43,573 nucleotides of DNA from a bacterium. Lineage in GTDB: Bacteria > Patescibacteriota > Minisyncoccia > Phycocordibacterales > UBA5272. Both the position numbers and the translations under genes were made by a program. The notes beneath the pieces are model-generated. The model was given only the letters and a program-made list of their open reading frames with translations. It was not told where the DNA came from and did not search any database. Positions 221-13,297 of this stretch are shown piece by piece. Location: assembly GCA_043745785.1 (NCBI GenBank), contig JAYTSG010000009.1, positions 1 through 43,573 of the forward strand, in the 5' to 3' direction. Position 1 is the stretch's first letter; the number at the start of each line of letters is the position of its first letter.

Positions 221-1231
221 ATGTCCTCCATCCACACCAAAGCAATACAAAATATCAAAGACATACTTTCTATCTGTATCAAACATGATCAAGAGAGGGA
301 GAATGCGCTAGTAGTCCATGACAGCCAGTTTGGTCTCACGGATATTGTTCTTGCTGGCTATAGAGAAGCATTGCCGTCTGCGCATTTTATCAATTTTGAT
401 GAGATGAATAAAGAAGAAATTATTCATGAGTTTAATCAAATGAAGCCAAAAGATTTAGTGGTACTGATACAGTCAACCAATTTTCTCCTCAATGAATTTC
501 GTATACGCCTGCATTTGTTTAATAAAAATCTCAAAGTGATAGAACATATGCATTTAGCCAGAAATGCACCTCATATGTGGGAAACATACATTGACGCACT
601 CGCATATGATACGAGTTTTTACCCAGTAGTAGCTCCAAAACTAAAGACTAAACTCGACGCTTGTCAAAAGTTGGTCATTTCTTCAGGTGATGTGAAGCTC
701 GAAATGGAAGGAGGGCTCGAACCTGCTATGCTCAACATTGGAGACTATGTCAACATGAATAATGTTGGAGGAACTTTTCCTATTGGTGAAGTTTTTACAG
801 AAGGGAAAGATCTTACTAAGCTTCATGGATCTATTTCTATTTACGCTTTTGCTGATAAGGATTTTAACGTACGTATATATGAGCCATTTCTCGTTCATAT
901 CGAGCAGGGTGAAATAGTAGGAGTAGGAGAAAATGCTCCAGAGCTTTTTAGAGAAATACTCGCTTTGGTAAAGTCATATGAAAGATCTGTGATACGAGAG
1001 ATAGGGTTTGGATTAAACAGAGCTATCACCAGGGATCATTACTTGTCCGATATTACTGCTTTTGAGAGAATACTCGGTATGCATCTTTCTCTTGGGGAGA
1101 AACATAGTGTTTATAAAAAAGAAGGTATGACTACCAATAAGACCAAATTTCATATTGATATATTTCCTGTGGTAGAAAAAGTTACCTGTGATGGTGTGGT
1201 GATATTTGAAAACGGTATCTATGCGGTGTAA
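221..1231 (+). CDS. Thermophilic-metalloprotease (M29/aminopeptidase)-like protein
   Basis: Motifs GGTFPIGEVF, IREIGFGLN, ERILGMHLSLG and FHIDI resemble the AmpT/M29 metallopeptidase fold. Confidence 0.6.
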   Translation: MSSIHTKAIQNIKDILSICIKHDQERENALVVHDSQFGLTDIVLAGYREALPSAHFINFDEMNKEEIIHEFNQMKPKDLVVLIQSTNFLLNEFRIRLHLFNKNLKVIEHMHLARNAPHMWETYIDALAYDTSFYPVVAPKLKTKLDACQKLVISSGDVKLEMEGGLEPAMLNIGDYVNMNNVGGTFPIGEVFTEGKDLTKLHGSISIYAFADKDFNVRIYEPFLVHIEQGEIVGVGENAPELFREILALVKSYERSVIREIGFGLNRAITRDHYLSDITAFERILGMHLSLGEKHSVYKKEGMTTNKTKFHIDIFPVVEKVTCDGVVIFENGIYAV

Positions 1232-1547: not shown

Positions 1548-2549
1548 ATGCAAAAAAAATCTGTGTTTCTTAAAGACTTGACCACTTTTCGTATGGGTGG
1601 AAGAGTGACACTCGTCTCACTTTCTTCTCATGCTGATGTTGAAAGTTTTTTTTATGATGAGAATAAATATCATATTATCGGAAGCGGTTCAAATATTCTT
1701 GTTTCTGAAAAAGAATGGGACATACCCTTTGTGAGCTATGTAGATGTTAATGTACTTTACACAGAAATAAATGACAGCACTACCTTCGTTACTGTTTCTG
1801 CTGGTAAAAATTGGGATGAATTTGTTTCTGAAACAGTAGCCTTAGGGTATGGCACGTTTGCAAATCTTTCACTGATTCCTGGCACTGTTGGAGCAGCTCC
1901 TGTACAAAATATTGGAGCATATGGCACTGAGGTAAGTGAGAGTATTTTCTGTGTGAAAGGCTATGATACACAAGAAAAGAAATGGAAGGAATATCACAAT
2001 AGTGATTGCTTTTTCTCGTACAGGAAAAGTATTTTTCAAGGAATCAAATCTTTTTTGATTACTGAGGTTGTTTTTAAACTCAGTAAAGGTGTGCCAAAGT
2101 TGCCAATCTACGGAGCGCTAAAAAAAATTTTTGAAGAAAAAGAATCTATTTCGCCAGAAGAGCTTCGTACTGAAGTTATACGTATTAGAGATAGTAAATT
2201 ACCAAGAATAAATGTGACAGCTTCTGTAGGCTCATTTTTTAAGAACCCTATCGTATCCCGCGCTGTGCTAGAAAAATTACGAGAGCAATTTGAAACTATC
2301 CCATCTTTTGCAGTAGATGAGGGGAAAGTCAAACTCGCAGCTGGTTTTCTGATTGAGTATTCTTGCAGCGAGATTTTTGAGTACAAAAATCTCGCGCTCT
2401 ACGAAAAAAATAGGTTAGTAATGGTAAATCTTGGAGATAAAACTTCTCTTAGTGAGGTAATCGAGTATGCCACACTCATCAAAACACAAGTCAAAAAAAA
2501 ATGTGGAGTTGAAATTGAAATTGAACCAGAAATACTTAGAGAAGTGTAA
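1548..2549 (+). CDS. murB: UDP-N-acetylenolpyruvoylglucosamine reductase
   Basis: LTTFRMGG, GSGSNIL, IPGTVGAAPVQNIGAYG, GSFFKNP, C-terminal EPE. Confidence 0.95.
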   Translation: MQKKSVFLKDLTTFRMGGRVTLVSLSSHADVESFFYDENKYHIIGSGSNILVSEKEWDIPFVSYVDVNVLYTEINDSTTFVTVSAGKNWDEFVSETVALGYGTFANLSLIPGTVGAAPVQNIGAYGTEVSESIFCVKGYDTQEKKWKEYHNSDCFFSYRKSIFQGIKSFLITEVVFKLSKGVPKLPIYGALKKIFEEKESISPEELRTEVIRIRDSKLPRINVTASVGSFFKNPIVSRAVLEKLREQFETIPSFAVDEGKVKLAAGFLIEYSCSEIFEYKNLALYEKNRLVMVNLGDKTSLSEVIEYATLIKTQVKKKCGVEIEIEPEILREV

Positions 2550-2629
2550 ATAGGTGCGCTTAGTTGAGGAGATTTTTGAGTGAGATGTACGGAACTTTTC
2601 CTCATTTTACTATTAGACCAAAATAGATA

Positions 2630-2670
2630 AAAAGTAAGAGTGTAGTCCTTATGGCTACACTCTTACTTTT
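2630..2670. terminator. Bidirectional intrinsic terminator between convergent murB and hsp20
   Basis: aaaagtaagagtgtag...ctacactcttactttt 16-bp inverted repeat with A/T tails. Confidence 0.8.
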
Positions 2671-3219
2671 TTATATTGACTTTACTTTAATCTTTGACTG
2701 CCTTGCTTTGTCTATCTTTGGCATACGTATGATGAGTAGTCCATGTTTTTCAACTGCTTCTGCTTCCTCTATTTCTATTTCATGAGGGAGTAATATACTT
2801 CTTGAAAAAGGACCCCAGTAGAGTTCTTTGTAAAAATAATCATCTGGTGGTATCTGAGTGTTGGCATCTCTTCTTCCTTTAATGGTTATCATGTCGCGAG
2901 TAATAGAGAGATGAAGATCCTCTGGTTTTACTCCAGCAACCATGGCTTCAATAATGATTTCTGATTGTGTCTGATACACATCAACAGAGAGCTCTCCTTC
3001 TTCATCTTCTGAAACAGATTCTTCGACTACATGATGGACCTTTCGGGTAAGGGGTCTATCTTCGATAGCACGTTCTTCTCTACCACGTTTTTGAGTGGAT
3101 CTAACAGGGAGGACTTCTTCTTCATCTTGTTCATCAACATCGAGATAAGTCTCTTCTTCATCTTCGACATTGATAGACCCAGCTAGTCTTTCAAAAAATG
3201 ATTTCTTTTCTTTAAGCAT
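2671..3219 (-). CDS. Hsp20/alpha-crystallin small heat shock protein
   Basis: LSVDVYQT...AMVAGVKPEDL...ELYWGPFSRSILLP...GLLIIRMPK; ATG at 3219 preferred over TTG at 3225. Confidence 0.9.
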   Translation of the reverse strand: MLKEKKSFFERLAGSINVEDEEETYLDVDEQDEEEVLPVRSTQKRGREERAIEDRPLTRKVHHVVEESVSEDEEGELSVDVYQTQSEIIIEAMVAGVKPEDLHLSITRDMITIKGRRDANTQIPPDDYFYKELYWGPFSRSILLPHEIEIEEAEAVEKHGLLIIRMPKIDKARQSKIKVKSI

Positions 3220-3460: not shown

Positions 3461-5608
3461 CTACCATTTCGCTACCATCAGCATATCTTCACCATCATCC
3501 TTCAGGTATTTCCAGATTTCTTCAGTAATGAAAGGCATGAAAGGATGTAGTACTTTTATTTGCTCTCGAAGAAGGGTAAGAAGTAATTTCTGCGCACTAT
3601 CCTTATCTTTATTTTCCATAATTCTCACTTTGTGGGTCTCAATAATCACATCACAGAATGTTTTCCAGAAGTAGTTATAGATTTTCTCAGAAGCAAGGTG
3701 AAGGCGATAGTTTTCAAGGTCACTTGCGATATCATTTTTGACTGCCTCCCACGCAGAAAGCAGTTGTGTATCTTCTTCTATGAGTTCTACAGTATCATCT
3801 TCAAAGTCTGCAGTTTTTTCTAAAACAAACCTTGTAGCATTCCATATTTTATTGGCGAAAAGTTTATAGGCTTTTACTTTATCTTCACCGAGCTTGAGAT
3901 CATTCCCTGGGCCATTGGCTACCATGAGCGACATGCGAAGAGCATCAGTACCGTATTTTGCGGTAAGGTCACGAGGGTCGAGTACGTTGCCGATAGATTT
4001 GCTCATCTTTCTTCCTTGTGCATCTCGCACGAGTCCGTGGAGGTATACCTGTTTAAAAGGGACTTCATTTAATGCATAGGTCGAAAAGAGTATCATACGA
4101 GCTACCCAAAAGAAAAGTATATCGTGCCCGGTCTCAAGGAGATTCGTTGGGTGAAAGGTTTTAAGATCAAGCGTCTCATCTGGCCAGCCAAGTGTAGAGA
4201 ATGTCCACATGCCGGAAGAGAACCATGTGTCCAGTGTATCCTCATCCTGTATCCAGCCGTCCCCAAGAGGAGCTTCAATACCAACAAACATTTCCTCATC
4301 TTTATACCAAACAGGTACTCGATGTCCATACCAGATTTGTCTTGATATACACCAGTCGCGGAGATTATCTATCCAGTGATGATAAACTTTCTCAAATCGG
4401 TCGGGGAGTATGTTCGTTCGTTTGCTTGCAACTGCGTCATGCATGAGTTTTTTGAGTGTGGTCGTGTTACTAAAATGCTTAAATTCTTTGTTCACTGCGA
4501 TGAACCATTGCTTCATGATTTGTGGCTCAACGATACCACCACTACGCTCTGCAGTAGAAATATTATGAGTATAGTCTTCTATTTTTTCTACGAGATCTTT
4601 AGCTTGTAATTTTTCAACTATTTTATCTCTAGCATCTTTTATCTTCATACCAGCAAATTCTTGTGCGATAGGGAGAAGTTTTCCGTACTTGTCGATGATC
4701 TGTTCATAGTCCAGCTCATATTTTTTTGCGATGTCAAAATCAACGACCGAGTGCCATGGTGTGATTGTCATGACTCCTGTGCCAAACTCTGGATCAGCTG
4801 ACTCATCTTTAATGATGGTTGCTTCGAGAGGTCCATTAATCCATTCGACCATCAGCTTGTCACCGTGCTTATATTCTTGGTATCTGACGTCATCTGGATG
4901 CATGACGACATATTTGTCACCAAATTTTGTTTCAGGTCGAGCTGTGCCGATAGTAAATGGTCCATATTTAAAATAATAAAACTTTGATTTTTCTTCAGTG
5001 TAAACGAGCTCATCATCGGAAATGGTAGTCTGGCCTTTTGGATCCCAGTTAACGATACGATTTCCTTTGTAGATAAGTCCATCTTCATACATTTTTTTAA
5101 ACATCGTTTTCACTGCAATATTACGCTTTTCGTCGATGGTAAAAGCAAGCCTTGACCAATCAAGCGATGCTCCCATCGAGCGGAACTGAGAGAGGATTGT
5201 CGACTGACTTTCTTTTGCAAACTGGTTGATGCGACTCAACATCTCTTCTCGTCCTAAATCATGACGAGATTTTCCTTCTTCTTTCTGAATTTTTTTCTCT
5301 ACTACTGATTGTGTTGCAATGGCAGCGTGGTCTGTACCAGGAAGCCAGAGCGTTTTCTTGCCATTCATGCGGTGAAAACGAATGAGAGTGTCTTGTATAG
5401 CGAGCATGATGGCATGCCCTGTGTGGAGTGTGCCGGTCACGTTCGGTGGTGGAAGGATGATGGTAAATGGTGTAGTTCGCTCTTTTCCATCTACCTTTGG
5501 TAGATTGTCTGGATTAAAGTAGCCACCCTTTTCCCACATAGTATAAAGTTGTGGCTCGACGCTCTCAGGATTGTACGGCTTTAATAATTGTTCGGGTACT
5601 ATTTTCAT
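3461..5608 (-). CDS. valS: Valine--tRNA ligase (short form, no C-terminal coiled coil)
   Basis: PPPNVTGTLHTGH, PGTDHAAIATQ, DWCISRQIWYGH, DTWFSSG, KMSKS. Confidence 0.97.
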   Translation of the reverse strand: MKIVPEQLLKPYNPESVEPQLYTMWEKGGYFNPDNLPKVDGKERTTPFTIILPPPNVTGTLHTGHAIMLAIQDTLIRFHRMNGKKTLWLPGTDHAAIATQSVVEKKIQKEEGKSRHDLGREEMLSRINQFAKESQSTILSQFRSMGASLDWSRLAFTIDEKRNIAVKTMFKKMYEDGLIYKGNRIVNWDPKGQTTISDDELVYTEEKSKFYYFKYGPFTIGTARPETKFGDKYVVMHPDDVRYQEYKHGDKLMVEWINGPLEATIIKDESADPEFGTGVMTITPWHSVVDFDIAKKYELDYEQIIDKYGKLLPIAQEFAGMKIKDARDKIVEKLQAKDLVEKIEDYTHNISTAERSGGIVEPQIMKQWFIAVNKEFKHFSNTTTLKKLMHDAVASKRTNILPDRFEKVYHHWIDNLRDWCISRQIWYGHRVPVWYKDEEMFVGIEAPLGDGWIQDEDTLDTWFSSGMWTFSTLGWPDETLDLKTFHPTNLLETGHDILFFWVARMILFSTYALNEVPFKQVYLHGLVRDAQGRKMSKSIGNVLDPRDLTAKYGTDALRMSLMVANGPGNDLKLGEDKVKAYKLFANKIWNATRFVLEKTADFEDDTVELIEEDTQLLSAWEAVKNDIASDLENYRLHLASEKIYNYFWKTFCDVIIETHKVRIMENKDKDSAQKLLLTLLREQIKVLHPFMPFITEEIWKYLKDDGEDMLMVAKW

Positions 5609-5871: not shown

Positions 5872-6177
5872 ATGGAACCAACAAACACACAAACTCAAAC
5901 TACCCAAAATCAACCAGTAATAGAAGTAAACAAGATAGACTCAGTTATTAAGGACATGCGTATCAGTCCAGAATGGATGATAACATTGGTACTCGCTTTC
6001 TTTCTAGGGGTAATTGGAGTTCATCGTTTTTATAATGGAAAAATAGGAACAGGTATTTTAACGGTTCTTACACTTGGAGGGTTTGGTATTTGGGTGATTA
6101 TTGATTTAGTCATGGTACTTTTTGGTAAATTTACAAAAAAAGACGGAACACTTATTACAGTGAGAATGCTAGCATAA
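5872..6177 (+). CDS. TM2 domain membrane protein
   Basis: LAFFLGVIGVHRFYNGKIGTGIL...GGFGIWVIIDL. Confidence 0.9.
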   Translation: MEPTNTQTQTTQNQPVIEVNKIDSVIKDMRISPEWMITLVLAFFLGVIGVHRFYNGKIGTGILTVLTLGGFGIWVIIDLVMVLFGKFTKKDGTLITVRMLA

Positions 6178-6251: not shown

Positions 6252-6854
6252 ATGAACAAAAAGCAGTCTACTATTTTAAAAAAAGGAGGAACTATCAGTA
6301 AAGAAGCGATGAAGAACGTTGCAAAAGTTATTGAAAAAGATAAGTTAACTAAAGGTATAGCGGACAAGGGTTCCGTAAAGCTTCCCGATCATCATTTTAA
6401 GCAAGTCAAGGTAAAACGTGGTCTCGCAGGTCTCGGTCTCTTTGCAGAGGAACCAATAAAAAAAGGAGAACTTATTATTGAATATATTGGCAATATCTTA
6501 AACAAAGAAGAATCAGAAGCTATTAAAAGTAATCAATACCTTTTTGAAATCAATCGTAATAAAACTATTGATGGTTCAGTGAGATGGAACATTGCACGCT
6601 ACTGCAATCATTCTTGCGATGGTAACGCTGAAAGTGAAATCACTAAAGGGAGAATACTTATTCGTGCTACCAAGAATATAAAAACAGGGGATGAGATAGT
6701 GTATGACTATGGCGAAGAGTTCGTGAATGAGTTTATCTCTTCCAAAGGGTGTCGTTGTACCTCAAAGAAGCATAGCTATGGTGCAAAGGGCGCAGAGACT
6801 ATGATAGACGTAGTAGGGATGAGTACAATAAATGTAAAAGAAATTGAAAGTTAA
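6252..6854 (+). CDS. SET-domain protein-lysine N-methyltransferase
   Basis: GLGLFA, IIEYIG, ARYCNHSC, EIVYDYG and post-SET-like CRC. Confidence 0.92.
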   Translation: MNKKQSTILKKGGTISKEAMKNVAKVIEKDKLTKGIADKGSVKLPDHHFKQVKVKRGLAGLGLFAEEPIKKGELIIEYIGNILNKEESEAIKSNQYLFEINRNKTIDGSVRWNIARYCNHSCDGNAESEITKGRILIRATKNIKTGDEIVYDYGEEFVNEFISSKGCRCTSKKHSYGAKGAETMIDVVGMSTINVKEIES

Positions 6855-7121
6855 TGAAAAATTCTTTAGTATTTATTTCTATAGTGAAGAATTTTCGGCT
6901 TTCACCACAGGGAATCAGATGCAACCTAAACATTGTATTGTAGAAATGACTTCGTCATTTCTTATATTTGCTCCCCAACATACTCTTGTGCGTAGCACCT
7001 AAGATACCCCACAAGTGTCAACGCGGAGCGTGCGAGAGGATAGCTCTGCTATGGGAGCTTCATTACAAAATATAACTCTCCATATTCCCTGACTTATACC
7101 ACAGGGTGTTCTATGAGGAAT

Positions 7122-7170
7122 AAAAAAAACGGCGCGCTTCTCCTCCATGGGGGAGGGAAAGCGCGCCGTC
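7122..7170. terminator. GC-rich hairpin, probable terminator (U-tract on minus strand)
   Basis: aaaaaaacggcgcgctt...aagcgcgccgt. Confidence 0.7.
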
Positions 7171-7298
7171 AGAGCAAGTCCATAGCATTGTCAATCAGTA
7201 CCCTCCACGATGTTTCTTCCCTCCCTAACCCTGGGAAAGATGTAGTGAGGGCAGGCTGGGTGCTGATTCTCGAGACTTTGATATGGATAACTCAAAAC

Positions 7299-7961
7299 TT
7301 ATTTCGATACTGCGAACACTACCAAGCCAGGAGACTTACCAGTGATTCCCTGGCCAAAAGTAGTGACATAACTGAGAGTTACTGGTACTTTGTCATTGCT
7401 AGGAATGATGATGACAGGATATCTTCCGGTAGACTTGTTACCCAAGAGTAGCCAGCTTACCCCAAAAGTACTTAAAGTTTGCCTCGCATCATTTGCAAGA
7501 TGCGAAATAATCTCAAGCATAATGTAAAGGGCTGGGGTCTTCACTTGAGGGTTAGTCATTTTTGCCTCCTTATATAGATCATCAATAGACTTGAGCTGTC
7601 GAGGATTTGTTATGACCATGATGCAGTGCGTAGGATTTTCTGCCGTCAGAGTACTTCCTACGCCACTCAACTCTTCAAGCTCACCATGCGACACATGAAT
7701 GACTTCTTTTTCGTCAGCTTGTGCTATTGCAGCCAAATATGGCTCAACCGCCTCAGACATCCTTGCATACTGAGTATAGGGTAATGTTGATATGCAAATA
7801 GTTGAGCTTACTTTTTTGATGAGTTCAAACTCAGGGTTTGTTACCCCTTGTTCACGAATAAAGCCGGCAAGCAGTGAAACAAAAACAGTCGCCCGTTGAT
7901 TTTTATCTTTTAGAAAGACTGAGGAATCTATTACTCTTTCAGTTATTTTCTTCGTTGACAT
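7299..7961 (-). CDS. Hypothetical protein (220 aa)
   Basis: Long ORF with AAGGGA SD-like site and a downstream terminator. Confidence 0.65.
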   Translation of the reverse strand: MSTKKITERVIDSSVFLKDKNQRATVFVSLLAGFIREQGVTNPEFELIKKVSSTICISTLPYTQYARMSEAVEPYLAAIAQADEKEVIHVSHGELEELSGVGSTLTAENPTHCIMVITNPRQLKSIDDLYKEAKMTNPQVKTPALYIMLEIISHLANDARQTLSTFGVSWLLLGNKSTGRYPVIIIPSNDKVPVTLSYVTTFGQGITGKSPGLVVFAVSK

Positions 7962-9022
7962 AGTTATCCCTTATAAGACTGAACTTTTTTTGCTAAGAGT
8001 CTATGCCTGTATAAACAAGCAAGTCTAACATGTATTTAATCATACTATAGTAATAATAAGAAAGTTATATTGACAAACTGTCAATTACATTCTATAAACT
8101 AAAAATACTCAGCATAAATTAATTTAAAAAGACTTACTCCATAAGAGTTATTTAGATTTAGAAGCATTTCAGGGTAAGAAAAAATTAAGTTTTTAGTTGT
8201 CATAATTAGCGTTAAGTATACGTTTTACCGTCTTTTTACTTGTTCTCTTTATGGAAGTGTCTCTTTTCTTTACAGAAAATAAGAGCTTTAGTGTCAAATT
8301 CTTTAGTGCTAATGTCTTTCTTCGGACTTACTCCACCGAGTATCATGTGTAATACATAGGGTTACACCATCCAAAGAGTATAGTTGTTTACTTGACTACC
8401 ATTGAGTTACGCTACGTCCCCAGACTGACTTTATGGGGTTACATGCGACTAAAAGTAGTGAGTAACATTTTATTTAACCATCAAACTAAATCTGTCTTAG
8501 ACCAAAGCTCTGTTGTGTTCCTTGTGAATAGATGAGTAAGTAGAATAAACTTTTTTTAAAAGTCATATCTCTCTATTGTAACGGAATTTTGCTATCCACG
8601 CTGTAATATATTTAATATTGAGTCTTTTTAGTCTCTATTTTAAAATCGTGTTAGTGCGTATGAGTAGCTTAATAGACTTGATCTAAGGGGTAATTAGACA
8701 GTTTATGAGTAACATTTTTAATCTTAGTACTGACGTTTTGTTTTTTATTCTGCAAAAATACTCCGTAGAGTAAACAAGAGATATGTAGTAAGATTGTGTG
8801 TTGTACTGAGCACACAACAAACATCGAAGATGTTTGTCCGATACAACGCTCGCATTGTATCGGACACCTTGTGGCATGAGTCTAGGGATGTTTATTTTAC
8901 ATACTCTATGTATGCTTTTTTATATTACCTCTCTATTTTAAACGGGTATCTCTGTGCTACTCACAAAATTATTTATTTTATTTATATGCATATGCAAAGT
9001 ATTTGCATATAAATAAAAAAAG

Positions 9023-9031
9023 TTATCCACA
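9023..9031 (+). promoter_or_regulatory. Perfect DnaA-box consensus TTATCCACA upstream of the promoter of the H1-like gene
   Basis: Exact 9-mer; promoter-like TTGTAC-N16-GATACT follows at about 9050-9077. Confidence 0.4.
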
Positions 9032-9158
9032 ATTTTTTTTATAATATGCTTGTACGTTATCTGCGAAATGAGATACTTATATACAGAGAGTTTGTGTCGC
9101 TAAGGTCGTCGTCATTAACTTAACTCTCTTATTTATATAAACAATAAAAATAACAATT

Positions 9159-9311
9159 ATGGCAGTAAAAAAAGTAGCAAAAAAAGTTGCAAAGAAGGTG
9201 GTAGCAAAAAAAGTAGCAAAGAAGGTGGTAGCAAAAAAAGTAGCAAAAAAAGTTGCAAAGAAGGTAGCACCAAAGAAAGTTGCAAAGAAGGTAGTTTCAA
9301 AGAAGAAATAG
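9159..9311 (+). CDS. Histone H1-like lysine-rich small protein (50 aa), absent from the ORF track
   Basis: MAVKKVAKKVAKKVVAKKVAKKVVAKKVAKKVAKKVAPKKVAKKVVSKKK*; 23 of 50 residues are Lys; synonymous codon variation between repeats; own promoter and terminator. Confidence 0.9.
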   Translation: MAVKKVAKKVAKKVVAKKVAKKVVAKKVAKKVAKKVAPKKVAKKVVSKKK

Positions 9312-9391
9312 TTTCTCTTAAGTTTCTCACAAAAAACGCATCATTCCCACGATGTGTTTTTTGTTTGGTATACTTATTGCTATGAAAGAAA
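9306..9391 (+). repeat. Terminator-promoter-ATG module, copy 1
   Basis: Aligns with 10140-10223; contains hairpin acaaaaaacgcatc...gatgtgttttttgt, then TATACT and ATG. Confidence 0.85.
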
Positions 9392-10062
9392 GTAATCCAT
9401 TTGAAGAAGAAAATATAGCGGTACAGTGGATATCCTCAGTCGAAGGAGAGAGAGGTTTAATGCGAGACAATAAAATATACCCTTCTCTACAAAAATGGTT
9501 TGAAAAAACTTCAAAAAGTGTGGTCGTGGATATTGGATCAGGTCAGGGGATTTGTTCTTCGAAAATATCTGGCTACTCCCGCTACATAGGCGTTGAACCA
9601 TCATCATTTTTAGTTGCAAGAGCAAAAGAATTATATTTTTCCCCAGAGAGAGACTTTCTGGAGGGAGATGCCTATGCGCTGCCACTTTTAGGCACAAGCT
9701 GTGACAATGCATTCTCAATCAATGTCTGGTTTCATTTAGAAAATCTACAAAAAGCGAGTGAGGAGCTCGCAAGGGTTTTAAAAAGAGGGGGAAAGTTTTT
9801 CATCCATACGGCTGATGGTGACGCATTAGATTTTTGGAAAGCATGTTATATTAATCCACAGATTCAGGGTAAAAAAATGACAGGTGAAGTCAAAGTTCCC
9901 ATAAATAATCTTTCGGTAAATACTTTTTATATGTACGACAATGCTGAAGTTTTTAGTGCACTAGAGAAAGCTGGGTTGAAAATTTTAAATGTTACTAAAC
10001 TTGGGCTTCCAGAAAAAGAGAAACCAATCTTTATTGCTATTGAAGGAGAAAAAATACTATAG
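9382..10062 (+). CDS. Class I SAM-dependent methyltransferase
   Basis: VVDIGSGQG, YIGVEPS, GDAYALPL, ELARVLKRGG; start moved to the ATG at 9382 after TATACT. Confidence 0.9.
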   Translation: MKESNPFEEENIAVQWISSVEGERGLMRDNKIYPSLQKWFEKTSKSVVVDIGSGQGICSSKISGYSRYIGVEPSSFLVARAKELYFSPERDFLEGDAYALPLLGTSCDNAFSINVWFHLENLQKASEELARVLKRGGKFFIHTADGDALDFWKACYINPQIQGKKMTGEVKVPINNLSVNTFYMYDNAEVFSALEKAGLKILNVTKLGLPEKEKPIFIAIEGEKIL

Positions 10063-10139: not shown

Positions 10140-10223
10140 AAATAGTTCCTCTTAAGTTTCTTACAAAAAACGCATCATGTACGCGTGCGCTTTTTGTTTG
10201 GCATACTCACCCTATGGAAGAAA
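10140..10223 (+). repeat. Terminator-promoter-ATG module, copy 2
   Basis: aaatagttcctcttaagtttcttacaaaaaacgcatcat...tttttgtttggcatact...atggaagaaa. Confidence 0.85.
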
Positions 10224-10701
10224 TAAAAGAAATTGAAGCGAAAGCAAAACTAAAAAATAAAGATGAAATTTCCTTCGTATAAGAGAAGTAAATGGTACGT
10301 ACGAATTTACTTTAAAACAGTCTCAATCAAATGAACTCGATGTTATAAAAAGAACGATAGAGATCTCTGATAAAAAAGCTCTCCACGACATCCTTCTCTT
10401 CTTGGGTTTTAAAGAAATCATTACGGTCACGAAAGAAAGGCGTCACGCATCATATAAAGAATGGATACTTTGCTTGGACGAAGTAGAAAATCTCGGTTCA
10501 TTTCTAGAAATAGAATATATTGGGACTAAAAATGTAGAGATCGTACAAAAAGAAGAGAAAGATTTTTTGAAAACGCTTCTGATTTCTGAAGAAGATATTG
10601 TTCTTTCTGGATACCATGCGATGTTATGTCAAAAACTTTTCTCAAAAGACAGTGAAAATAAGGGTAAAAAGTGGAGTACAAGTGTTTTTTTTATGGTATA
10701 A
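10214..10701 (+). pseudogene. CYTH-domain (class IV adenylate cyclase-like) pseudogene with internal deletion and frameshift
   Basis: MEEIKEIEAKAKL (ExExK motif) stops at 10280-10282; another frame continues FLRIRE...FTLK...LGFKEIITVTKERR...CLDEVENLGSFLEIE. Confidence 0.8.
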
Positions 10702-10711
10702 TTAGGTACTT

Positions 10712-13297
10712 ATGTCACTACTTACAAAGATTTTCCCGAAAGAAGAAGAGCGTCTTGTTAAAAAACTTACCCGCGAGGCAGAGGCAGTATTTCTCCTTGA
10801 GGAAGAGTTTAAAACGCTCACTCCAGATGGACTTAAAGAAAAAAGCGCACTACTTCGAGGCAGGGTTATGCAAGCTATCGATAGCAAAGATGGGCAAGAG
10901 AGGAAACTCGCTGAGACAAAAATCTTAGACGAAGTGCTTCCTGAGGCTTTTGCTCTCGTCCGTGAGGCTGCGCGCCGTACACTTCATATGATGCACTATA
11001 AGGTACAAGTAGTTGGAGGTATACTTCTTCATCGTGGTAATATCGCAGAAATGAGAACAGGAGAAGGAAAGACTTTAGTAGCAACTCTACCTGCGTATTT
11101 AAATGCGCTCACTGGGCGCGGAGTGCATGTGGTGACGGTCAACGACTACCTTTCACGTCGTGATGCCGTATGGATGGGGCAGGTATATCACGCTCTCGGT
11201 GTTAGTGTCTCTGTCATCAATCACCAGTCATCATTTACCTATGACGCCCTCCAAGCAGGAACCGCTGTCGAAGAGACAGAAGAAACGAAAGCAGAAGAAA
11301 GCTTTAAAGTTATGTACGAATTCCTCCGCCCAGCTTCTCGTAAAGAGGCGTATGCTTGTGACGTCACCTACGGTACCAATAATGAATTCGGTTTTGATTA
11401 TTTGAGAGACAATATTGGCTATGATGAAGGAAGTCTCGTCCAAAGAGGTTTTCATTACGCTATCGTCGACGAAATAGACTCGATACTGATTGATGAATCT
11501 CGTACACCACTGATTATCTCTGCTCCAGCTCGTGAGTCAAGCGAAGAATATAAACGGTTCGCACGTATTGCTGATGAACTTGAAGAAGGTCCTCATTATA
11601 CTGTTGATGAAAAACAGCGAGCCATTTCACTTTCCGAAGAAGGTATTGAACGCGCAGAACTTCTTCTTGGAGTTAAAAATATCTATACTACTGAAGGCAT
11701 GAAACATGTGCATCATTTAGAGACTGCCATCAAAGCAAAGGCTCTCTTTTTACTTGAAAAAGAATATGTGGTGAAAAATGGAGAGGTAATTATCGTCGAC
11801 GAATTTACTGGGCGTATGCAACCAGGGAGACGTTGGTCAGACGGACTGCATCAAGCTGTCGAGGCTAAAGAAGGTGTTGAGGTGAAAGAAGAGTCGAGGA
11901 CACTCGCTTCGGTGACTTTTCAAAATTATTTTAGATTTTACGAGAAACTTGCTGGCATGACCGGTACCGCAGAGACATCGAAAGAAGAATTTTATAAAGT
12001 GTACGGCTTGCCCGTAGTTCCTGTGCCAACACACAATGCTATTCGTCGTAACGATCACAGTGATCTTATTTTTCAAAATGAAAAAGGAAAGTGGAAAGCG
12101 CTTTCAAAACGTGTAAAAGAATTGTATGAAAAAGGTCAGCCAGTATTGATCGGCACTATTTCTATCGAGAGAAATGAACTTCTTTCTAAATATCTTGAAA
12201 GAGAGGGAGTGCCTCATGCTATCTTGAACGCTAAGAATCATGAAAGAGAAGGAGAAATAATCGCTGAAGCGGGAAAAAAATCTGCAGTCACTATTGCTAC
12301 GAACATGGCAGGGCGCGGTGTGGATATCAAACTCGGCGGACCACTAGCGACACAAGCAGAAAAAGAAGCTGTGATAGGTCTCGGAGGGCTTTTTGTCATT
12401 GGTACTGAGCGTCACGAGGCACGTCGTATCGACAATCAGTTACGAGGTCGGGCAGGTCGCCAAGGTGACCCTGGTGAGACACAATTCTTTGTGTCTCTTG
12501 AAGATGATCTCATGCGTGTCTTTGGTGGAGAAGGTGTCAAAAATATGATGGGTAAAATTGGTCTTCCTGAAGATGAAGCAATACAATCAAGATTTGTCTC
12601 GAAAGCTCTTGAAAGTGCTCAAGAAAAAATCGAAGGATTTCATTTTGATTCTCGTAAGCACACTCTTCAATATGACGACATACTGAATGTGCAGCGTAAA
12701 AGTGTGTATGAAAAACGTAAAAAGATTTTAGCTGGCGACGTAGTGTATATCGATGGACTTATTACTGAACTTGAAGAAAAAAAACCTGGTATCAAAGTAC
12801 TTCTTGAAGAAAAGTATGAGAAGTTTGGACAAGACTCAGTGCGCTATACTTTCTCTGTTATGCTTCTTCAAATTATAGATGCTTTCTGGATGGAGCATCT
12901 TGATGCTATGGAACATCTTCGCCAAAGTGTGGGACTGCGTGCTTATGGTCAGCGTGATCCTCTCGTTGAGTATAAGAAAGAGGCGTTACATATGTATAAA
13001 GGTCTTGATGGTCAAATTAAAAATGACGCTATTCTTTTTATTGAAAATATGGAAAGTATCTTTACCGTAAATAGAGCAGCAGAAGGTAGAGAGATGCCGA
13101 CTAATGTTTCGCTCTCTACAACGGCGACAAATATTTTAACTGCTTCTGGCGATATACAATCTCCCGTCAAGAATATTCAAAGCGCTTCTACTCCTTTAGA
13201 AACTGAAAAATATGGTAGAAATGATCTCTGTCCTTGTGGTAGTGGAAAGAAAGTGAAAAAGTGTGATTGTCAAGAGTTTGGACATTTGAGGAAGTGA
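10712..13297 (+). CDS. secA: Preprotein translocase ATPase SecA
   Basis: EMRTGEGKT, HVVTVNDYL, VDEIDS, ATNMAGRGVDI, QLRGRAGRQGDPG, SEC-C motif GRNDLCPCGSGKK. Confidence 0.99.
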   Translation: MSLLTKIFPKEEERLVKKLTREAEAVFLLEEEFKTLTPDGLKEKSALLRGRVMQAIDSKDGQERKLAETKILDEVLPEAFALVREAARRTLHMMHYKVQVVGGILLHRGNIAEMRTGEGKTLVATLPAYLNALTGRGVHVVTVNDYLSRRDAVWMGQVYHALGVSVSVINHQSSFTYDALQAGTAVEETEETKAEESFKVMYEFLRPASRKEAYACDVTYGTNNEFGFDYLRDNIGYDEGSLVQRGFHYAIVDEIDSILIDESRTPLIISAPARESSEEYKRFARIADELEEGPHYTVDEKQRAISLSEEGIERAELLLGVKNIYTTEGMKHVHHLETAIKAKALFLLEKEYVVKNGEVIIVDEFTGRMQPGRRWSDGLHQAVEAKEGVEVKEESRTLASVTFQNYFRFYEKLAGMTGTAETSKEEFYKVYGLPVVPVPTHNAIRRNDHSDLIFQNEKGKWKALSKRVKELYEKGQPVLIGTISIERNELLSKYLEREGVPHAILNAKNHEREGEIIAEAGKKSAVTIATNMAGRGVDIKLGGPLATQAEKEAVIGLGGLFVIGTERHEARRIDNQLRGRAGRQGDPGETQFFVSLEDDLMRVFGGEGVKNMMGKIGLPEDEAIQSRFVSKALESAQEKIEGFHFDSRKHTLQYDDILNVQRKSVYEKRKKILAGDVVYIDGLITELEEKKPGIKVLLEEKYEKFGQDSVRYTFSVMLLQIIDAFWMEHLDAMEHLRQSVGLRAYGQRDPLVEYKKEALHMYKGLDGQIKNDAILFIENMESIFTVNRAAEGREMPTNVSLSTTATNILTASGDIQSPVKNIQSASTPLETEKYGRNDLCPCGSGKKVKKCDCQEFGHLRK

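Follow-up and report, generated by a model that had tools for sequence, protein, structure and literature searches.

The closest described precedents for a SET-domain methyltransferase acting on a protein of its own cell's chromatin come from Chlamydia and Methanosarcina. In the summary given by one review (PMC3980110), cpnSET of Chlamydophila pneumoniae associates with both Hc1 and Hc2 and acts as a methyltransferase on Hc1 (Murata et al. 2007, as cited there), and Go1-SET of Methanosarcina methylates MC1-alpha. The same summary states that NUE did not methylate Hc1 and that SET effectors of Legionella and Burkholderia target host histones. Here, we describe a 43,573-nucleotide (nt) stretch of DNA, called the window below, that forms contig C9 (JAYTSG010000009.1, forward strand) of a 780-kb Patescibacteriota genome (assembly GCA_043745785.1; 57 contigs; 38% guanine plus cytosine [GC]). 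The window contains a gene for a predicted SET-domain lysine methyltransferase and, on the same strand, a mini-gene for a 50-residue polycation composed like the tail of histone H1. The original prediction for this DNA, made from its letters, had joined these two genes and a second methyltransferase in one chromatin-marking module. We found that the linkage of SET to the mini-gene extends beyond the window, and that the second methyltransferase is an accessory cassette. Within the limited collection searched, no paper joined a SET domain or an H1-like protein with Patescibacteria. What is new here is the order-wide co-occurrence test with its controls, the finding that the SET/mini-gene pair has been split by an insert, and the exclusion of the second methyltransferase.

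The SET gene, which would encode the writer, lies where it had been predicted (6252 to 6854, plus strand). Its 200-residue open reading frame (ORF) matches the full Pfam SET profile (PF00856, positions 1 to 105) with 85 bits against a cut-off of 22.4 (E = 5.5e-24). The motifs that characterize SET enzymes are the GxG that binds S-adenosylmethionine (SAM), NH(S/A)C, and the catalytic tyrosine of (E/D)xxYDY. The GxG, NH(S/A)C and YDY motifs are kept in every one of 30 aligned orthologues, in which G60, G62, N119, H120 and Y153 are unchanged and align with their counterparts in KMT2D and Set1. The nearest solved chains are KMT2/MLL SET domains (4z4p, 5f59, 2w5y and others; E = 6e-15 to 3e-14). 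Judged by these motifs, the gene is predicted to encode a catalytically intact protein-lysine methyltransferase. It is also a core gene, found in 53 of 53 genomes of the genus. Two side observations concern the SET loci of other families. Lysine-rich low-complexity tails are present by eye on the SET proteins themselves in 3 of 27 such loci (C-terminal in L051 and L058, N-terminal in L055), as would fit an enzyme that works on a polyanion or close to one. A distinct small basic ORF, MAKR(A/S)TGVG(T/K)MKTSRS.KT.KRL.., is convergent to SET in two other families (L036, 2823 to 2966, and L055, 2126 to 2260, both on the minus strand).

The candidate substrate is encoded at 9159 to 9311 (plus strand) by the (VAKK)n ORF that the original prediction had picked out, MAVKK(VAKK)n...SKKK, which is the sole ORF of such composition in the genome. 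A same-strand ORF of 21 to 46 codons, MAAKKKA..(AKK)n..AKRA, follows SET after 200 to 300 nt in 27 of 30 sister-species loci; in the remaining three, the contig ends too early (L010, L026) or is cut at the first codons of the ORF (L020). Every length difference among these ORFs amounts to whole codons. Differences between species are skewed to third codon positions (e.g., 12 of 18, 9 of 13 and 4 of 5), and three species share an identical peptide. This pattern of change shows the 50-codon frame to be a genuine gene rather than an accidental one, and the promoter and terminator described below predict that it is transcribed on its own.

The peptide consists of AKK, VAKK and PKK repeats, with approximately 45 to 60% lysine plus arginine and no acidic or aromatic residues; the version in the window has about 20 lysines. 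Across the order its length ranges from 13 to 117 residues through gain and loss of repeats, and both lysine-rich and arginine-rich versions occur. We take the composition to resemble the lysine-, alanine- and proline-rich tails of bacterial proteins such as mycobacterial HupB. Curated families did not account for it. No winged-helix globular domain of linker histone H1 was matched in Pfam at E up to 10, no Hc1 family was among the Pfam matches listed for the mini-gene peptides, and NCBIfam, ribosomal models included, had no meaningful match at E up to 1. A search of 5.8 billion proteins with the peptide returned no match at E up to 0.001, and a protein atlas returned only unnamed clusters. 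A genome search with the single protein recovered 1 of 24 sister genomes, and a profile of 23 orthologues matched 1 of 151 genomes, a result that is uninformative because the profile missed the window's own genome. Since homology searches fail on this peptide for technical reasons, composition scans, a DNA pattern and gene anchors were used in their place. The product is most likely a stand-alone polycation similar to an H1 tail without a folded domain, and coating of DNA would be the most economical role for a peptide of this kind.

In the genus, the two genes belong to a conserved block that reads ValS (divergent), SET, mini-gene, SecA. The left edge is valS (3461 to 5608, minus strand; valyl-tRNA synthetase-like, named from a reading of its translation), for which tblastn gave a match next to SET in 29 of 30 sister-species loci, all but L025, a locus truncated by the end of its contig. 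The order of SET followed by the mini-gene recurs in G069, a genome from the second genus of the window's family. In the window, the opposite-strand orphan (7299 to 7961) and the noncoding gap that had been noted earlier are both present, the latter as 1,197 nt without a convincing ORF (7962 to 9158). An accessory insert of approximately 2.3 kb (6900 to 8980, including the orphan) has split SET from the mini-gene here. The region is made up of two old, separately transcribed core genes with inserted passengers.

Beyond the family, the mini-gene was followed through secA, which was found in 149 of the 151 genomes (118 families) of the order sample. Approximately 0.9 kb upstream of secA was taken from 140 of 148 relatives; six were left out because secA lies less than 500 nt from a contig end, and two others were also left out. 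A filter for basic ORFs (12 to 160 residues, lysine plus arginine of at least 40%, at most two acidic residues) found one on the secA strand in 100 of the 140 regions. On the opposite strand the same filter found six short ORFs, namely, one true mini-gene (G152) and five likely chance frames of 12 to 21 residues. Inspection removed one false match (G196). It kept G125, where the filter had picked a wrong frame although a genuine 15-residue ORF is present, and it added three true mini-genes that had escaped the filter: one is masked in part by Ns, that of G017 lies 2 kb upstream of secA, and that of G152 is encoded on the opposite strand. The mini-gene is thereby found upstream of secA in 102 of 140 genomes, and the gene kept beside it most widely is secA rather than SET.

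SET itself is patchily distributed in the order, and its scores fall into two groups separated by a natural gap: 30 genomes reach at least 77.7 bits, and no other exceeds 61.4. The original prediction had looked to linkage or co-occurrence in related genomes, and both are seen: in addition to the adjacency within the family, the mini-gene is present in all 29 relatives (26 families) with a high-scoring, orthologue-type SET versus 73 of 111 others (Fisher p = 3.6e-5). When any SET was counted, the figures were 51 of 57 versus 51 of 83 genomes without SET (p = 2e-4). Two controls showed no link. Low-scoring SET types alone gave 22 of 28 versus 80 of 112 (p = 0.63), and CYTH, a family as patchy as SET (56 of 151 genomes), gave 37 of 52 versus 65 of 88 (p = 0.84). 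An enzyme that occurs only where its candidate substrate exists, together with a substrate that often occurs without the enzyme, is the pattern that a writer-substrate relation predicts. As in a pair of the cpnSET/Hc1 type, an enzyme and a lysine-rich protein are co-encoded and co-inherited.

These results suggest that SET might methylate the mini-gene peptide in the cell, a proposal that we regard as a serious candidate, though somewhat short of probable. In such a system, the polycation would be made from the mini-gene's own TTATCCACA-box promoter and would coat the DNA, and SET would methylate some of its lysines and so tune how tightly it binds. Its working would resemble that of cpnSET on Hc1 in Chlamydia or of Go1-SET on MC1-alpha in Methanosarcina. 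DNA binding, methylation and any effect on compaction are what we infer from the genes.

A number of observations weigh against this proposal. The case for DNA binding comes from the composition of the peptide, and Pfam HC2 scores the window peptide at 7.2 bits (E = 6.5) and the best of six relatives at 20.9 bits, both below the cut-off of 40. SET and the mini-gene are separate transcription units, with a terminator-like hairpin after SET and a promoter in front of the mini-gene. Adjacency was seen in 1 of the 26 families with a high-scoring SET. No mini-gene lies within 1.5 kb of SET in any of the 27 loci taken from other families, and in genomes with a high-scoring SET outside the window's family (f1), SET and secA lie on different contigs or 68 to 590 kb apart. 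Among the MAAKKKA-type loci described below, 0 of 80 (of at least 120 stretches) have SET within 3 kb, and the control for that search recovered SET in 4 of 4. Half of the genomes with a mini-gene (51 of 102) are without any SET, and so are 4 of another 10 Patescibacteria genomes in which an ORF of this kind is present. Peptide length and the fraction K/(K+R) show no difference between SET classes (K/(K+R) 0.85 versus 0.81, p = 0.72). The 29 of 29 figure comes from a test that treats related genomes as independent, and the 38 genomes scored as negative for the mini-gene are those with none within approximately 0.9 kb upstream of secA; they include five truncated loci and could include placements such as those in G017 and G152. 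A complex prediction with SET residues 45 to 185, the peptide and SAM, run without controls, scored 0.00 against a mark of 0.32 and counts as evidence neither way.

The separate transcription units, the single-family adjacency, and the SET-free half of mini-gene genomes with a peptide composition that is the same with and without SET all favor an alternative in which the two genes are neighbors by descent only. SET would then have another substrate, such as ribosomal or translation proteins or host-cell proteins, the mini-gene would encode an independent DNA-coating polycation, and the co-occurrence would reflect shared lineage history. Other targets are documented for bacterial SET proteins in the review cited above (NUE and the Legionella and Burkholderia effectors; PMC3980110), and the best NCBIfam match of the window's SET is the AnkI/LegAS4 effector model, although at 40 bits it falls far below the cut-off of 550. 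This alternative is a strong contender that we would likewise place just under an even chance. It has to contend with the 29 of 29 nesting (p = 3.6e-5) in the face of two flat controls, with the lysine-rich tails that some SET orthologues bear, and with a SET sequence that by eye has no obvious signal peptide. Methylation of the peptide by SET predicts methyl-lysine on the peptide only in SET-bearing lineages.

The mini-gene has a conserved set of control signals. In 24 of 24 family sequences, the 240 nt upstream of the ORF are highly ordered: a TATGCAAAT/ATTTGCATA palindrome, an invariant AGTTATCCACA, TTGTAT-like and then CATACT- or GATAAT-like hexamers, and a paired leader. In the window, the palindrome (TATGCAAA..TTTGCATA type; 8984 to 9010) is formed by inverted repeats that are kept in most of the 24 aligned family sequences. 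It is followed on the plus strand by a GTTATCCACA box (9022 to 9031), approximately 40 nt upstream of the -10 element and unchanged in 24 of 24 family sequences, and by a predicted promoter (9050 to 9077) with -35-like TTGTAC (9050 to 9055) and -10-like GATACT (9072 to 9077). The 9-mer TTATCCACA within the box matches the textbook DnaA-box consensus exactly, and its single exact copy in the window is the one at this promoter. Order-wide, an exact TTATCCACA lies within 300 nt of the mini-gene ORF in 55 of 70 loci, always in the same orientation and 75 to 232 nt upstream, and 68 of 70 loci have it with at most one mismatch. In 54 order-wide sequences, the promoter columns TTG and (G)ATAAT/ATACT are at least 90% conserved or invariant. 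A search for TTATCCACA-N37-47-ATAMT found several copies per genome in 131 of 151 order genomes, with a reversed-pattern control near zero, and among the matches listed some promoters of this class hold, between -35 and -10, a GAAC-N4-GTTC box that we take to be LexA-like. The repeated pattern and this box make the TTATCCACA-box promoters look like a small DNA-metabolism promoter class or regulon. The pattern is common to other promoters and thus too unspecific for genome-wide detection of the mini-gene. Literature searches on secA, lysine-rich proteins and the DnaA box returned nothing relevant within the limited collection searched.

The transcript is predicted to begin with a structured leader and to end at a strong terminator. 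In the window, the leader (9084 to 9158) may form a stem between AGAGAGU (9085 to 9091) and ACUCUCU (9123 to 9129) around GGUCG (9104 to 9108). In family sequences the two ends of the leader are complementary (AGAGAG/CTCTCT) and enclose a hairpin whose loop carries GGTCG, although the stem predicted from the window sequence alone has a z score of only -1.0. Because leaders vary in length, the order-wide structure rests on the GGTCG count (48 of 54 leaders versus 0.9 expected) and on one compensatory pair, an A-T to G-C change in the inner hairpin seen by eye in L003, L011 and L028. Downstream (9300 to 9364), a small hairpin whose loop holds the stop codon precedes an intrinsic terminator (stem 9329 to 9342 with 9351 to 9364) of -19.3 kcal/mol (z = -3.6; 0 of 200 shuffles as good). 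By eye, the stem co-varies in sister species and the loop CTCCCAC is kept. Rfam has no family for leader or terminator at the gathering threshold and gave only chance-level rows at E up to 1.

Taken together with these signals, methylation of the peptide by SET can be extended to a minimal chromatin of the Paceibacteria type, in which a tail-only H1-like polycation would have its lysines methylated by SET in approximately one-fifth of lineages so as to tune nucleoid compaction, and its promoter would be wired to the replication initiator through the conserved DnaA box. This fuller scheme is tentative, and we consider it rather unlikely in its entirety. If it were true, it would be a bacterial analogue of histone marking of a free-living type, coupled to the replication cycle.

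The constancy of secA as a neighbor raises the question of whether the mini-gene might instead serve RNA, the ribosome or secA, as a tiny ribosomal RNA-binding polycation or a regulatory upstream ORF, with SET irrelevant to it. In favor are the 102 of 140 order genomes and 8 of 80 pattern loci in which secA is the neighbor. The leader with its conserved GGUCG might act as a site of RNA-level autoregulation, as in ribosomal-protein operons, and Parcubacteria are reported to add an Ala/Lys-rich tail to ribosomal protein uS19 (PMC9297842). Against a role in secA expression, a strong terminator followed at once by secA's own extended -10 (TGnTAnAAT) parts the two genes in 34 of 70 order loci under a strict filter and in nearly all loci by eye, so the mini-gene and secA are tandem but separate units. 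The stop codon would also lie too far from the terminator stem, approximately 20 nt, for a terminating ribosome to affect it. A length range of 13 to 117 residues would be unusual for a protein bound at one set place on the ribosome, none of the NCBIfam ribosomal models was matched, and the existence of both lysine-rich and arginine-rich versions speaks against a lysine-sensing leader. Overall, we consider a function of this kind improbable. A SecM-like arrest peptide or leader-peptide attenuator for secA was rejected on its own account: the roughly 20 nt between stop codon and terminator stem speak against attenuation, secA has its own extended -10, and peptide length and lysine/arginine usage vary freely.

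The wider distribution of such ORFs was surveyed with the N-terminal pattern MAAKKKAxK, one representative genome per species, which yielded at least 120 stretches. Tiny lysine-rich ORFs in many phyla were found among the 80 loci examined. secA lies directly downstream in 8 of the 80, from records labeled Paceibacterota, Saccharibacteria, Adlerbacteria, Patescibacteria group and plain "bacterium." ORFs of 12 to 40 residues with a MAAKKKA start and a lysine-run end were seen in loci L062 to L141 from Acidobacteriota, Alphaproteobacteria, Eisenbacteria, Dormibacterota, Chloroflexota, Binatia and two DPANN-type archaea, and the same N terminus heads longer proteins elsewhere, of up to 469 residues (L136), for example, with a ..PNAAFMKP.. 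domain. In L226 (G187), an extremely acidic small ORF, MDQEDDSNTFDDLEDE..DDDDDD.., occupies the mini-gene's place on the secA strand.

The class I SAM methyltransferase that had been reported approximately 70 nt past the mini-gene is present on the same strand (9382 to 10062, its likely ATG 71 nt past the mini-gene stop), and this proximity speaks for one chromatin-marking module of SET, H1-like peptide and class I methyltransferase with two writers, a proposal that is now very improbable, as the mini-gene terminator and the repeats described next bound the gene, it is found at this place in 0 of 30 sister-species loci, and its family matches are of a small-molecule type, all below cut-off. 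The ORF can be read from an alternative start at 9352, but that ATG sits inside the terminator stem, which makes 9382 the likely start. The ORF from 9352 to 10062 matches Methyltransf_11 (E = 1.5e-16); no NCBIfam model reaches its cut-off, and the subthreshold matches are generic small-molecule methyltransferase types. Two direct repeats, D3 (39 nt, 95%) and D2 (23 nt, 83%), duplicate the terminator/promoter junction on the plus strand. Copy 1 (9306 to 9376) comprises the last two codons of the mini-gene, the terminator and then a TGGTATACT element (9366 to 9374) that precedes the methyltransferase, and copy 2 (10140 to 10209) comprises the terminator and TGGCATACT. The promoter part occurs a third time (10682 to 10704; D2, 87%) as the secA promoter TGGTATAAT (10694 to 10702), directly upstream of secA (10712 to 13297). 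The methyltransferase lies between copies 1 and 2, and a broken CYTH-domain gene (10214 to 10701, plus strand) lies between copies 2 and 3. Its Pfam match is partial, covering profile positions 107 to 179 of 179; a genome search reads positions 51 to 179 through one TGA, and the 22 N-terminal codons (MEEIKEIEAK..) are in another frame. The threefold junction suggests that insertion occurred by junction duplication, and the two genes read as inserted cassettes between the mini-gene and secA that are unrelated to the SET/mini-gene pair. Orthologues of the methyltransferase (E < 1e-50) occur in 4 of 52 other genus genomes, on contigs other than those with SET, and no SET, secA or mini-gene was found in the stretches of their flanks that were examined. 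Each cassette has its ATG 7 to 9 nt downstream of a TGGYATAMT element, which may leave its transcript with a very short leader or none.

Neither the methyltransferase and CYTH genes nor the orphan and TM2-domain genes were found by tblastn at their window positions in the 30 sister-species loci, and secA visibly follows the mini-gene directly in 13 of those loci. The TM2-domain gene (5872 to 6177, plus strand; Pfam TM2, E = 1.2e-16) is an accessory insert between valS and SET. A terminator-like hairpin after SET was found by a consensus scan (6942 to 6962, plus strand), and sister species by eye have a GC-rich hairpin and T run immediately 3' of SET. The orphan (220 residues, minus strand) has a GC content of 41 to 50% compared with 24 to 35% in its flanks, has no Pfam or NCBIfam family, and has only two homologues (51 to 54% identity) among 5.8 billion proteins. 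Its terminator hairpin (7129 to 7169, minus strand) has 18-nt arms that are 89% complementary, followed by a T run on that strand. Sister species bear other inserts at the same two junctions, and thus the spots flanking the mini-gene serve as landing sites for accessory genes. Strikingly GC-rich ORFs stand at these junctions in otherwise AT-rich genomes (L016, approximately 2500 to 3060; L021, the same gene on the reverse strand; L020, approximately 370 to 1050, reverse strand), and one of these inserted ORFs has a signal-peptide-like start. The AT-rich gap from 8100 to 8980 has several hairpins (e.g., 8835 to 8849 with 8852 to 8866, 93% complementary), no conserved ORF and no Rfam match. A replication origin at the 1.2-kb gap was considered and rejected: the window has one exact TTATCCACA, the genome has 11 versus 9.5 expected, dnaA is on another contig, and the gap is absent in sister species.

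If SET does mark the peptide, the chromatin logic of a writer and a lysine-rich substrate would be present in some of the smallest known cells, and chromatin-type marking would occur also outside the pathogens that target host histones. Such a system could be rebuilt in a test tube from a 200-residue enzyme, a 20- to 50-residue peptide and SAM. The mini-gene matters apart from SET as well, being conserved widely and probably abundant. It is overlooked by annotation pipelines and by trypsin-based proteomics; gene callers tend to pass over ORFs of this size, and its composition is rejected in homology searches.

Among known systems, the enzyme compares best with the KMT2/MLL SET domains, which are its best sequence matches and with which its NHSC and YDY motifs align. 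It differs from them in having only 200 residues, no partner regions of the WDR5/RbBP5 type, and a post-SET region shrunk to a GCRC..H stretch. The mini-gene product shares its repeat composition with the C-terminal tail of linker histone H1, but it lacks the globular domain, comes from a stand-alone gene and has no Pfam match. Go1-SET and MC1-alpha, as outlined in the review, are likewise a minimal prokaryotic SET enzyme of similar size and a small DNA-binding protein of the same cell; MC1 is folded and has one target lysine, whereas the candidate here would be a disordered repeat with approximately 20 lysines. The closest parallel in proposed logic is cpnSET and Hc1, in which a bacterial SET enzyme acts on the cell's own lysine-rich, H1-like protein. 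For that pair, interaction and methylation are reported in the review's account, whereas for the pair in the window they are predicted. Hc1 and Hc2 are larger and have their own Pfam families, whereas the mini-gene product is a pure tail of 13 to 117 residues, encoded in an ultra-small organism of the Patescibacteria type by a gene with a constant position upstream of secA and with a TTATCCACA-box promoter.

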